DNA of 64,000 bases from the IMG/VR virus record IMGVR_UViG_2721755646_000005; one strand, written 5' to 3'. Positions 51,001 through 54,000 of this stretch are shown in pieces. Origin of the DNA: a virus (taxonomy: Duplodnaviria > Heunggongvirae > Uroviricota > Caudoviricetes). Numbering within the stretch: position 1 is the stretch's first letter; the number at the start of each line of letters is the position of its first letter. The position numbers were made by a program.

Positions 51001-54000
51001 GGGCCGAAGGGTGATAAGGGAGAGCGCGGTGACACCGGCCCTGTCGGGGCAACCGGCGAACGGGGACCGGCAGGTGATGCTGGTCCGGCAGGCCCGCAGG
51101 GGCCGAAAGGTGACAGGGGAGAGCGGGGAGAGACCGGTCTGACGGGAAATGCAGGTCCTCAGGGTCCAAAGGGAGATACCGGTGCGGCAGGCCCGGCAGG
51201 CCCACAGGGACCGAAAGGAGAAACAGGTGCGGCTGGCCCGGTGGGGGCAACCGGACCTCAGGGGCCGAAGGGCGACCCGGGGGAGACGCAAATACGGTTC
51301 CGTCTGGGGCCGGGAAACATTATTGAGACAAACAGCAATGGCTGGTTCCCGGATACAGATGGCGCACTCATCACCGGACTGACCTTTCTTGCCCCCAAAG
51401 ATGCCACACGGGTTCAGGTTTTTTTTCAGCATTTGCAGGTCAGGTTTGGTGACGGGCCGTGGCAGGATGTTAAGGGGCTGGATGAAGTGGGCAGTGATAC
51501 AGGCAGAACAGGAGAATGACATGAACATATTAAAAAAAATTATGCAGCGTCTGTGCGGTTGCGGAAAGCATGATGACTGTGAACACGGGCAGTCGCTTAC
51601 AGTACAACTGCGACTGGGGCCGGCAGACATCCTGGAGTCAGATGAGAATGGTATTATCCCGGAGCAGGACAGGGTAATCACGCAGGTGGTGATACTGGAT
51701 GCGGATAAAAAGCAGATACAGTGCGTGGTAAGACCGCTGCAAATTCTGCGTGCTGACGGGAGGTGGGAAAATATTGGCGGAATGAAATAGCCGACAGCTT
51801 CACAAAAACCGGAGTCCGGCTCCGGTTTTTGTTGTCATGTCCGGTGGATGTTTGTTAGGAATGTTCAGACAGGTTTATTTTGAATTTACACAGAATCCTA
51901 AACAGGTTCGAAAATTAAGAAAGAGGTTGTATGTTTAGCATAAGAACCCTACTACCTATTAGCGCCAGCGTATCAGTTCCGACAAAACAATCTCAATCCA
52001 TCCCAATAACTTTAGCAGGGAGAACAATCGAAAAAGCGCAAGAGAAAGAAGGATTACTTGTTTTTTTAGGAATGAAATCCGTTAATGACTATACTCTTAA
52101 TATTCTTGGCCAAAATGTTTCAAGAGTCACAACGGGGAAAAAACCGTATGATTTATTATTCCTGAATGATGCTACAAAACAAGATTTTGATAAAAGGAAA
52201 ATGGAGTTTACATATCCTGGAGCAAATAAAAGCCATCTACAATCAAGTAATAGCGATGTTGTTGCTGCTGCAGCTATAAGTATTACAGCGACAGAGATGA
52301 AAACCATCCTGCCAGATGATTTAACACTAGGAAAATACAACAAAATTTATCTGTCTGGGCATGGTTCTGCTGGTCTACCTCTTCTTAAGTGCGGAGATGA
52401 ATTTTTATCACCGTCAGATATTGTCGACCGCATTGTTCAGCATAATCTTCATGAAATAGATGATATCAGATTAACATCCTGTAACTCAGCCAACATAATA
52501 AAAAACAAAGACTTCTCTCCTGATGAAATAGAAAAATCCGCAAATATGAATAACGGCTGGTTGGCCAGGGCATTATTTGGTCAAAAGAGGTCTTTAGCAG
52601 AACACGTCTATGCCGAGTTTGAACGTCGCGGAATTAACGTTTCTATATCAGGTTACCATGGCACTGGCGTTTTTTATGTACCAGAGCATGGTAAACCAAC
52701 AACGCATCTACGCTCCACAACTGTGCCTGCAACACCTGAACATACTGTAAGAAGAAGCGACTACAGAGCCACTTTGGGTAGAACTCAACCCATAGATATT
52801 GAGTAATTGAGCCAGCATATACACTTGATGGTTAGGAAACAGAATCATTGTTTTAAACATTTCCTGGCCATTAATATTGTCGGCGGGAGCATATCCAGGA
52901 CTGGCCGGCAAACCGGGTACGCGATCTGTTGCCATGGAAAGTTGATCTGAGCGCTCAGTAAATATCAATACGGTTCTGGCGAGCCGCTTACGATGCATGA
53001 GAATCACTAATAGTATGTAATTATTACATTTTATTTACAATGCTGTTTCTGTTGGTCTGTATCCATAATTATGAAATGCTGACTTATGGTGTCAAAATAA
53101 CACATATTCCTTTCAATAATCATTTCTTTTACTATCTTTTCCCTGCTGAGAGGGTGGGGTAGATGTTCTCTTGTGAGATTCATGAACGCAGACTTATCAT
53201 AAAGAGTGCATATGTTGGAGTTCAGTGCGTTCTTGACAAAAACCCCTTTTTCTGGAACGCATAATGTTATTGGGCACTTAAGAAATTGTGTGTCGCAAGA
53301 GAATTCATCAGGATTTACAACAAATGAATGAGAATGGATTTTATTTTTAAGGGCGTTTTCGGCCCCTTTTTTCCATCCTATATTTGAAGATAATTGAAGC
53401 ATAAAATCCTGAGATATTTGTGCAAAACTTCGTCCGTTGTTGATCTGCTGTTCCAGGTTGCGAGCAATAGTGTTTTGTCTCGCCATAAATATGGAGAAAT
53501 GATTACTGCATACAGGATTTACTGTAAAACCATTGACTGATTCGATATAACGGATATCCATTTTATAACGTTCTTTTATGATTACAGTATCATTTTGATT
53601 TTGCTGCACAATATAACGTAAAGATGCTAGCTCATTCTCAGGTAAGATACTGCCTGCTGTGAAGTTTAAAAAGATAGGCATGTTTTTTCTGTAATACAAG
53701 TCGATTGTTTGTGATTTCGCGCTGTAGGTATATTATCATTCATATTTAACTTCCTAAAGTATGACCTCGTAGGGAGATAAATGCAATGCTTAAAGGTAGA
53801 TTGAAATGATAAATTAGCGCTTGGTAAATCCAGAATTTCATAAAGAGAGAGGTGGTGTTTTTTCATAGCGCTGAGATGTAAGTTGCAACATGTATTATAT
53901 GCAAGAGAATAGGGAGTACTGGATACATTAACTCTATGTAATCCATTCAAGATATTAATGCAATTGAAATAATTGACATAAAATATTGCATAGGTGAGGT

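Follow-up and report, generated by a model that had tools for sequence, protein, structure and literature searches.

A conserved stand-alone fibre C-terminal domain protein encoded behind the side tail fibre gene of an Escherichia coli O157 prophage, a possible accessory of the fibre tip

Tfa and gp38-type proteins are binders of phage fibre tips, and the gp38-type proteins cap the tip. The collagen-like prophage fibres EPclA and EPclB were described by Ghosh et al. (2012; PMC3368898), from whom the name and architecture of EPclA are taken, and in these fibres the PfC domain (PF06820/IPR009640) is a trimerisation module that forms the distal globule. The PfC of EPclA trimerises alone and nucleates the collagen helix, as determined by SEC-MALLS and CD (Ghosh et al., 2012; PMC3368898). 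Moreover, a recombinant fibre produced without the small protein considered here folds, trimerises and looks normal by EM, and refolding is reversible and unaided both for this fibre and for its Col-PfC fragment (PMC3368898). Mondal et al. (2016; PMC5155283) described the product of Sp5 ORF68 (ECs1229) as an 89-aa fibre C-terminus domain. Plaques and lysogens were still obtained after in-frame deletion of ORF68, and the gene was listed as non-essential; the deletion was not among the essential or impaired mutants, and no phenotype was reported on the K-12 host. The Sp5 fibre gene, ORF67, was essential in the same study (PMC5155283).

The window analysed here (64,000 nt, IMG/VR record IMGVR_UViG_2721755646_000005) is an E. 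coli O157 prophage of the lambda-like, long-tailed type with a J gene. The genes J, lom, stf and a small gene follow one another in this order, which places the small gene in the tfa slot of lambda-type phages (Table 1) and bears out the initial annotation of an 89-aa ORF at this position. The ORF comprises 89 codons from the ATG at 51521 to the TAG at 51788-51790 and is annotated by PGAP as WP_001023353.1 ("phage tail fiber C-terminal domain-containing protein"); PGAP places the start of stf at the ATG at 50206, which yields a fibre of 437 aa. The stop codon of stf (TGA, 51517-51519) is followed 1 nt later by the ATG of the small gene, and this spacing was unchanged in 73/73 loci. The small gene is translationally coupled to stf, and the two genes are transcribed together, with the small gene as the last before a likely terminator. 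A promoter scan revealed no convincing promoter of its own (one 9/12 match, compared with 2.0 expected by chance). The hairpin downstream of the small gene likely closes the late or tail operon as an intrinsic terminator; it was not listed by a simple terminator scan, and it is kept along with the small gene, including in 933W-like podophages. Sequence conservation stops at approximately 51840, where variable effector cargo starts, represented in this window by an Ibe-like gene (51931-52806) and NleG7 (53031-53699).

Table 1. Coordinates of the stf–small gene module and its signals in the window.
Feature	Coordinates	Strand	Evidence
stf, side tail fibre, 439 aa from GTG at 50200	50200..51519	+	Sequence, Pfam, PGAP
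PfC (PF06820) of Stf, residues 365-428, paralogous to the small gene	51292..51483	+	Pfam E 3.6e-35, model 1-64 of 64
AGGAG ribosome-binding site of the small gene	51510..51514	+	Sequence; inside the last stf codons, 6 nt 5' of the ATG
Small gene (stand-alone PfC protein, 89 aa)	51521..51790	+	ORF reading, BLASTP, Pfam, PGAP, PHROG 576
N-terminal 27 residues of the small protein, private to it	51521..51601	+	Alleles, dN/dS 0.23, predicted structure
PfC (PF06820) of the small protein, residues 28-89	51602..51787	+	Pfam, dN/dS 0.086, all-beta prediction
Hairpin and T-run, likely intrinsic terminator	51802..51832	+	dG -28.2 kcal/mol, z -5.9, 0/200 shuffles fold as well

The small gene is an orthologue of Sp5 ORF68/ECs1229 and 933W L0122, with which it shares a length of 89 aa, a location directly 3' of a PfC-ended fibre gene, and the arrangement of stop codon, 1 nt and ATG. 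Sp5 ORF68 (equivalent to L0122 of 933W, from short-tailed Stx2 phages) belongs to the same family and is joined to the fibre gene before it by the same ...ACAGGAGAATGACATGAA... sequence, as seen in the deletion primers, and the copy in PA4, a relative of Sp5 length, is approximately 93% identical in protein. The partner fibres differ, being the essential 645-aa EPclB of a podophage in Sp5 and a 437/439-aa EPclA side fibre here, and among phages with the small gene the deletion phenotype is known for Sp5 only. The small protein also matched PHROG 576, an 89-aa "tail fiber protein" family, over its full length (E 6.5e-60; all 89 residues aligned to all 89 profile positions). Phage 434 carries the gene as well, and its record labels the product "tail fiber assembly chaperone".

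Stf exhibits the EPclA architecture, consisting of a PF08400 N-terminal domain, a coiled coil, collagen Gly-X-Y repeats and a PfC tip. The initial annotation had proposed that the small ORF aligns with the last 60 residues of Stf. Formal alignment established significant similarity but shifted its limits: by BLASTP, residues 28-88 of the small protein aligned with residues 365-427 of the 439-aa Stf, with 21/63 identical positions (33%), 60% positives and an E value of 3e-11 for this single pairwise comparison, so that 11-12 residues at the C-terminus of Stf and 27 at the N-terminus of the small protein were left without counterparts. The Smith-Waterman score was 100, compared with a mean of 22.4 (sd 3.8, maximum 43) for 2,000 shuffles of the small protein (z = 20). 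Both proteins matched PF06820 (Phage_fiber_C), Stf with 120.6 bits (E 3.6e-35) and the small protein with 125.1 bits (E 1.4e-36), the latter above the gathering score of 25 bits and with residues 28-89 covering the whole domain (model 1-64 of 64). At the nucleotide level, the codon-aligned PfC segments of the two genes were 51% identical and gave no usable blastn alignment. The paralogy is already known, being recorded in PGAP, Pfam, PHROG 576 and Mondal et al. (2016). The small protein thus matches the full PfC of the EPclA/EPclB fibres (Ghosh et al., 2012; PMC3368898), to which it is approximately 33% identical and than which it evolves more slowly; unlike these fibres, it has no shaft and no attachment domain, and it has a private 27-residue N-terminus with a Cys pair.

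Structural prediction with AlphaFold2 was unusable from the single sequence (pLDDT 51), whereas a model built from a shallow alignment of 15 sequences was usable and showed an all-beta fold with pLDDT values of 81-87 in the core. In the N-terminal part, a short helix was predicted at residues 3-11, followed by the conserved pair C12 and C14. The nearest folds to the model were phage tail-fibre tip domains (BFVD: probability 1.0, TM ~0.5, rmsd 2.4-3.0 over ~60 residues), and the top match in the PDB was the Mu fibre 5yvq_A, although these fold matches were statistically weak (E 8.5e-3 for the best, up to 0.11). By structure, the predicted PfC fold comes closest to T7-like fibre tips and to Mu gpS (PDB 5yvq), which have no detectable sequence relationship to the small protein. 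Searching the PDB by sequence returned a chance match only (Optineurin, E 0.75).

To characterise selection, we compared alleles of the small gene and of the fibre tip. The small protein was always 89 aa long across thousands of E. coli copies. At a dS of about 0.14-0.17, the dN/dS of the small gene was 0.15 over its whole length and 0.086 within the PfC body, and that of the fibre tip was 0.23, above the PfC body of the small protein. This body was nearly invariant among alleles, and the 27 N-terminal residues varied more. Within the last 78 residues of the fibre, variation was concentrated at hot spots (positions 11, 12, 19, 24, 37, 43, 46 and 47), whereas the homologous positions of the small protein were fixed. 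Only 100-250 nt separate these hot spots from the N-terminus of the small protein, in prophages that are multicopy and recombine heavily, so that linkage would confound any site-by-site co-variation between the two. The least variable stretch of the whole region was 51478-51522, with a diversity of 0.000-0.016 among 24 distinct alleles. The ribosome-binding site and start codon are the best-conserved bases locally and dN/dS is below that of the expressed tip, both of which point to selection on the small gene's own product. These results confirmed that the small gene is a real gene under selection and not a remnant.

The family is narrow. We detected 6,339 copies of the small gene in 697 of the 5,426 complete E. 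coli genomes (13%; median 10 copies), and nearly all occurrences of the family are in attaching-and-effacing pathogens rich in prophages (E. coli, E. albertii and Citrobacter rodentium). A profile search of 1.84 billion representatives provided only 94 matches, most of them E. coli fragments, and a scan of genome contigs with one genome per GTDB species provided three loci. Distant relatives are thus too few to support a deep covariation analysis. One of the three loci is a 93%-identical copy on a 725-nt contig labelled Xanthomonas pisi, which is probably contamination.

Comparison with related phages, which had been suggested as a way of finding alternative fibre tips at this position, did reveal alternative tip modules. 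Among 80 loci selected by the Stf tip alone, the small gene followed the fibre in 80/80 (76 intact). In a short-tailed Stx phage, it follows the 645-aa EPclB collagen fibre with the same 1-nt spacing. In one diverged genome (L168), a 79-aa orthologue follows a non-collagen fibre ending in a diverged PfC; between this pair and the present pair, the small proteins were 66% identical, the tips were 40% identical, and cross-paralogue identities were 29-34%. These identities indicated that the duplication is old and that both copies have been kept. The small gene is thus tied to the PfC tip, whatever the shaft of the fibre and the type of virion. Different proteins occupy the slot behind other tips: Tfa (PF02413) follows lambda-type tips (E 2.7e-45 for the lambda-type neighbour in PhiR29_1), and a gp38-like adhesin (PF21721) follows the fibre of Stx2-86 (E 1e-19 for the gp22 control), whose C-terminus matches Peptidase_S74 (PF13884; E 1e-8). 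The small protein had no match to PF02413 (Caudo_TAP) at E <= 0.01 and none to the gp38-type adhesin families PF21721 and PF05268, and Peptidase_S74 (PF13884) was matched by neither Stf nor the small protein.

Lambda Tfa, like other Caudovirales tail fibre assembly proteins (PF02413), shares with the small gene the slot directly 3' of stf as the last late gene, and both travel with a particular tip type. However, the two have no sequence similarity, and the small protein does not reach half the size of Tfa and is homologous to the tip itself. The Tfa-type requirement for functional fibres does not extend to the small gene, which is non-essential in Sp5, the one system tested (PMC5155283). The gp38-type adhesins (PF21721), such as gp22 of Stx2-86, are likewise small and encoded right after a collagen-containing lambdoid fibre gene. 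They too have no similarity to the small protein. In their case it is the adhesin that varies and determines the receptor; in the present pair the variable member is the fibre tip and the small protein is conserved, the reverse of the gp38-type arrangement.

Several sequence features of the small gene were examined and set aside. Relative to stf, the gene is read in the +1 frame, which is open back to 51389; a programmed frameshift fusing the two products was rejected, as the T8 (51419-51426) and A8 (51532-51539) runs were not conserved among alleles, and Mondal et al. (PMC5155283) likewise found no frameshift signal. A zinc knuckle in the motif CGCGKHDDCEH was not supported as such, because C20 and H22 vary (C20R, H22N/D) and H17 is missing in the L168 and C. 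rodentium orthologues; conservation is limited to the C12/C14 pair and C68. A lipoprotein or secreted protein was also rejected, since the N-terminus, read by eye, has no hydrophobic core and carries Arg10 where a lipobox needs an apolar residue.

We considered several explanations for the small gene. That it is a decaying, functionless remnant of a former fibre tip, as the initial annotation had suggested for a swapped tip, would accord with its tip homology and its location directly 3' of the fibre gene, where leftovers of exchanged tips often remain. This explanation is scarcely credible, being refuted by a dN/dS of 0.09-0.15 at the above dS together with constant length; in addition, a ribosome-binding site and a start codon of the gene's own are conserved, the gene accompanies the fibre at every locus selected, the diverged pair is conserved in L168, no shaft-coding leftover precedes the gene, and its 27 N-terminal residues are gene-specific. 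An essential Tfa-like chaperone needed for folding and trimerisation of the PfC tip is suggested by the tfa position, the label in phage 434 and the strict linkage to the PfC tip, but it is very improbable and already largely refuted for Sp5, where deletion of ORF68 is viable and ORF67 is essential (PMC5155283). The fibre and Col-PfC also trimerise and refold reversibly alone (PMC3368898), and the small protein lacks similarity to PF02413. The idea of a tip-derived chaperone therefore survives only in a weak, non-essential sense. A non-virion role, in which a moron-like product would act in the lysogen or on the animal host, like lom nearby and the type III effectors of the cargo, is consistent with the location at the border of tail genes and effector cargo, with the near restriction to attaching-and-effacing pathogens, and with dispensability for the phage in Sp5. 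We regard it as distinctly improbable, because the gene is coupled to stf translation, lies 5' of the terminator and not after it, has no convincing promoter, travels with the fibre tip where the cargo differs, and is found in phage 434 too.

Two further explanations concern the tip sequence itself. Mondal et al. (2016; PMC5155283) proposed an intragenomic reservoir cassette, i.e., a spare tip sequence that replaces the fibre PfC by recombination or deletion. A draft contig (L170/P0059) joins collagen repeats to a small-type PfC at a short "GPA" microhomology, and a chimera of the opposite direction (P0121) exists. However, the L170 contig begins within the collagen repeats and may be an assembly artefact, and when complete E. 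coli genomes were searched with the fusion sequence, the best matches all had the normal two-piece arrangement. Homologous exchange is not expected between segments of such low nucleotide identity, near-invariance of the small gene across phages means that it would offer one alternative tip only, and the conserved ribosome-binding site and start codon and the low dN/dS indicate selection on the gene's own product. A silent tip reservoir thus fits the data poorly and is quite unlikely. Alternatively, the small protein could be a soluble, trimeric free tip that serves as a decoy or receptor blocker: after release at lysis it would occupy the receptor of the fibre on debris, on vesicles or on sibling lysogens and so reduce wasted adsorption of progeny virions or superinfection. 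In favour of this, the domain is tip-like but lacks a shaft, the protein is produced late and can be dispensed with in the laboratory, and PfC trimerises autonomously (PMC3368898). Nevertheless, it is only 33% identical to the tip that it would mimic, the fibre tip varies at hot spots where the small protein is fixed, and its action would depend on release at lysis, as no signal peptide was seen at the N-terminus (read by eye). This explanation also fits the data poorly; we do not favour it and consider it unlikely.

The reading that we prefer, with a probability of approximately 0.4, is that the small protein is a dispensable trimeric accessory associated with the fibre tip and not an obligatory folding chaperone. 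The gene would be a functional late gene encoding a stand-alone copy of the all-beta PfC trimerisation and tip domain. Its PfC body would form a homotrimer of ~30 kDa that joins the distal end of the fibre, where it could act as a cap, a stabiliser, an assembly-efficiency factor or a modifier of adsorption on natural hosts. We infer the trimerisation of the small protein, its physical contact with the fibre and the effect of this contact. A dispensable accessory role agrees with the outcome of the Sp5 ORF68 deletion, and by analogy the occurrence of Tfa and gp38-like proteins in the same slot may support a tip-binding role. Normal folding of the recombinant fibre in the absence of the small protein (PMC3368898) weighs against this reading, as does the statistical weakness of the fold matches. 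Conservation of the small protein above that of the fibre tip fits a conserved partner surface, although several other roles fit equally well. Because no deletion phenotype was reported on K-12, any contribution of the small protein would be subtle or specific to particular hosts. A more specific proposal, which we put forward only tentatively, is that the small protein is a distinct kind of fibre partner, a trimer that acts in trans by docking on PfC tips, those of collagen-like fibres and of others, and thereby alters adsorption or host range when the natural host bears O-antigen. The sole deletion test was performed on K-12 and would have missed such an effect.

Taken together, the comparative results speak against the remnant, the essential chaperone and, for the most part, the reservoir cassette; the gene is non-essential in Sp5 yet strongly conserved. 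If the small protein is indeed a partner that docks on the tip and alters adsorption or host range, the slot behind lambdoid fibre genes would have a third solution beside Tfa chaperones and gp38 adhesins. In EHEC, Shiga-toxin phages and effector-bearing prophages both carry these fibre modules, and decoration of the tip would bear on how the toxin phages find new hosts.

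The right arm of a lambda-like E. coli O157 prophage lies in the window, which is 100% identical to strain 180-PT54, where the prophage adjoins dacD. Stf has the 'EPclA' architecture (Ghosh et al., 2012; PMC3368898), which runs from an N-terminal PF08400 domain through a coiled coil and collagen Gly-X-Y repeats to a C-terminal Phage_fiber_C domain (PF06820; PfC). The gene that follows encodes an 89-aa protein with a PfC domain of its own at residues 28–89 (hereafter, the small gene and small protein).

Features of the prophage right arm, in gene order (window coordinates)
Feature	Coordinates	Strand	Remarks
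J			First in gene order of the right arm
lom	49542–50141		After J
Side tail fiber gene stf	50200/50206–51519		After lom; 437/439 aa
Small gene	51521–51790	+	After stf; 89 codons
Strong hairpin	51802–51832		After small gene
Ibe-like gene	51931–52806	+	Type III effector cargo; 291 aa; PHROG 6583
nleG7	53031–53699	-	Type III effector cargo; after Ibe-like gene
dacD	55000–56172	+	Chromosomal gene; marks prophage end

The Ibe-like protein matched the PHROG family 'T3SS secreted effector Ibe' (E = 3.7e-206) and had no match in Pfam or NCBIfam. Within the late operon, lom is bracketed by terminator-like hairpins at 49493–49512 and 50168–50189; the number of such sites in the region showed no excess over shuffles. 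A 67-nt pseudogene fragment that PGAP labels 'tail assembly protein' (about 51791–51857) falls directly on the terminator hairpin downstream of the small gene; this annotation probably reflects spurious similarity.

The initial annotation described the small protein as a paralogue of the last 60 residues of Stf. Formal alignment confirmed the paralogy: small-protein residues 28–88 aligned with Stf residues 365–427 (BLASTP: 33% identity, 60% positives, E = 3e-11), the alignment score lay 20 standard deviations above 2,000 shuffles, and both proteins matched the full 64-position PF06820 model (E = 1.4e-36 for the small protein and 3.6e-35 for Stf). The shared domain stops short of the very end of Stf, however, since its last 11–12 residues fall outside the similarity, as do residues 1–27 of the small protein. 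The two PfC segments were only 51% identical in codon-aligned DNA and gave no useful blastn alignment, indicating that the duplication is old.

Several features showed that the small gene is a working gene. Its ATG lies a single base after the stf stop codon and is preceded by AGGAG 6 nt upstream; 73 IMG/VR loci all have the same spacing, start codon, and length of 89 codons. The least variable stretch of the region (24 distinct alleles) was 51478–51522, which contains the end of stf and the ribosome-binding site and start codon of the small gene. Pairwise Nei–Gojobori analysis of 51 distinct alleles yielded a dN/dS of 0.15 for the entire small gene, 0.086 for its PfC body, and 0.23 for its N-terminal 27 residues (dS about 0.14–0.24); the PfC of Stf also gave 0.23. 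Copies numbered 6,339 in 697 of 5,426 complete E. coli genomes (median of 10 per carrier), and 296 phage records contain the gene as well, among them phage 434 and numerous Stx phages. Directly 3' of the gene, the 14-bp hairpin with a T-run (dG -28.2 kcal/mol, z -5.9) is conserved with it, 933W-like podophages included; just past this hairpin, phages are no longer homologous. This evidence for a real gene, together with the conserved hairpin at the point where homology stops, shows that a PfC-ended fiber gene, the small gene, and the terminator form a module.

Two sequence peculiarities were also observed. An A8 run (51532–51539) spans small-gene codons 5–6 and is missing from K5R alleles. One IMG/VR copy (L100, 2739–3004) contains several homopolymer frameshifts, which represent either sequencing errors or a pseudogene.

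The small gene is tightly linked to PfC-tipped fibers. Among 80 loci chosen solely by the C-terminal 78 residues of the fiber, all 80 had the small gene directly downstream: 76 were intact, 2 were cut by a contig end, 1 matched only from residue 5, and 1 had homopolymer frameshifts. In short-tailed Stx2 phages, it follows a 645-aa EPclB fiber with the 1-nt spacing kept. A more diverged pair was found at locus L168 (GCA_008387015.1, contig AAKHPG010000016.1, 110–974), where a non-collagen fiber (212 aa as called, or 241 aa from a TTG start) has a diverged PfC at its end. The next gene, which overlaps the fiber gene by 14 nt, encodes a diverged 79-aa stand-alone PfC. Downstream of this pair are NleG-like and SopA-like effector genes, and L168 had no megablast match among complete E. 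coli genomes. Over the PfC core, the L168 and window pairs shared 66% identity between small proteins and 40% between tips, as compared with 29–34% across paralogues, indicating from sequence comparison that the tip/small duplication predates the split of the E. coli and L168 lineages. Both copies have persisted alongside differing shafts, and evolution has been faster in the tip than in the small copy.

In E. coli, the fiber tip varied recurrently at positions 11, 12, 19, 24, 37, 43, 46, and 47 of the last 78 residues, and the homologous positions of the small protein were fixed. The Stf PfC variants at 51313–51432 (residues about 372–410) included GN/AS/MS/MR, N/H/Y, D/G, A/D, R/Q, V/G, and F/L/M/V, and the recurrently variable positions look like receptor-contact hot spots. 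A T8 homopolymer (51419–51426) sits on the most variable stf codons in the window allele.

The stand-alone PfC family is a narrow one: in a profile search, 1.84 billion representative proteins yielded 94 matches, mostly E. coli fragments, and scanning genome contigs, with each GTDB species represented by one genome, recovered three loci. A 725-nt contig labeled Xanthomonas pisi (L083) carries a small-gene copy with 93% identity, almost certainly as E. coli contamination of the assembly. Long proteins from elsewhere contain tandem units resembling the C-terminal half of PfC (...VVVLDAD...G.L.VR.ADG.W..I...), with four units followed by collagen repeats in P0165 (565 aa) and 9 and 14 matched stretches in P0134 (3,037 aa) and P0152 (4,803 aa), respectively.

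Comparison of related phages, as suggested in the initial annotation, revealed alternative tip modules in the slot after the fiber gene. With lambda-type Stf tips, the slot that holds the small gene in the window is occupied by Tfa (PF02413). In Stx2-converting phage 86 (L169, 9174–12056), the collagen fiber has a Peptidase_S74 intramolecular chaperone domain at its end, and the genes after it encode a gp38-like adhesin (PF21721) and then Cor (superinfection exclusion). Given that Tfa and the gp38-like adhesin both bind the fiber tip, the small PfC protein would be expected by analogy to be a tip partner as well, an expectation rather than a demonstration.

Structural prediction with AlphaFold2 from a 15-sequence alignment (pLDDT of 72 overall and 81–87 over residues 31–88) yielded an all-beta domain; on its N-terminal side lie a short helix and a linker of low confidence. 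Foldseek returned no significant match for this model; the nearest BFVD folds were phage tail-fiber proteins (probability 1.0, TM about 0.5, rmsd 2.4–3.0 over about 60 residues), and the best PDB fold match, the Mu tail fiber of the fiber–chaperone complex 5yvq, was not significant (E = 0.11). A PDB sequence search with the small protein found nothing. The predicted fold agrees with a tip-type domain and adds little else. Cys12 and Cys14 (51554–51562), just before the PfC body, and Cys68 (51722–51724), within it, are conserved as far as the diverged L168 orthologue, and the PfC of Stf contains no Cys; speculatively, these residues might staple the chains of a trimer together by a disulfide or form a metal site in it.

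The small gene is already known from annotation and from a published description that includes one functional test, a deletion. Its PGAP product name is 'phage tail fiber C-terminal domain-containing protein', and a PHROGs family of 89 positions covers it. Ghosh et al. (2012; PMC3368898) reported that isolated PfC is trimeric, that a Col-PfC fragment refolds reversibly, and that recombinant fiber expressed by itself in E. coli forms a trimeric dumbbell, with no mention of the downstream ORF. In the short-tailed Stx2 phage Sp5, the PfC-ended collagen fiber ORF67/ECs1228 is essential and was located at the tail end by immuno-EM, and ORF68/ECs1229, the small-gene orthologue, was described as an 89-aa fiber C-terminus domain, had its own in-frame deletion primers, and was counted as a non-essential late gene in plaque and lysogenization assays on K-12 MG1655 (Mondal et al., 2016; PMC5155283).

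The interpretation in the initial annotation proved partly right. The paralogy and the position equivalent to lambda tfa hold; the data also bear on its proposed roles, namely a remnant of a swapped tip, a tip-derived chaperone, or a decoy. A decaying remnant is excluded by the constant length and signals, the low dN/dS, and the linkage to the tip in 80/80 loci. A chaperone essential for the fiber is contradicted by the dispensability of Sp5 ORF68 (PMC5155283) and by the ability of the fiber to fold by itself (PMC3368898). A decoy is disfavored because the small protein is neither closely similar to the tip nor tracks its variation.

Mondal et al. (2016; PMC5155283), who found no frameshift signal fusing ORF67 and ORF68, suggested that ORF68 might serve as a reservoir sequence for varying the fiber. 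Such a cassette fits poorly: the DNA divergence is too great for homologous exchange, the nearly invariant small gene could supply just a single replacement tip, its translation signals and its protein are themselves under selection, and among complete E. coli genomes the best matches to the one fusion sequence found, in a draft contig, all had the normal two-gene arrangement. Two rare chimeric proteins were observed: P0059 (L170, 4–291), known solely from a draft contig beginning inside collagen repeats, joins these repeats to the small-protein PfC at a 'GPA' microhomology, and P0121 is a 92-aa chimera of small-protein residues 1–40 and the C-terminal half of the fiber PfC; neither junction was among the best matches in complete genomes. 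The protein might have a lysogen- or host-directed role, although translational coupling to stf and a position upstream of the terminator favor a late, fiber-linked product.

The best-supported reading, held tentatively at a probability of about 0.4, is that the small protein is a dispensable trimeric accessory of the fiber tip; we infer both its trimerization and its contact with the fiber. Such an accessory would act as a cap, a stabilizer, or an enhancer of assembly or adsorption, with an effect that may become apparent only on natural hosts. The small gene is non-essential in the laboratory, yet it is under strong purifying selection beside every PfC-tipped fiber.
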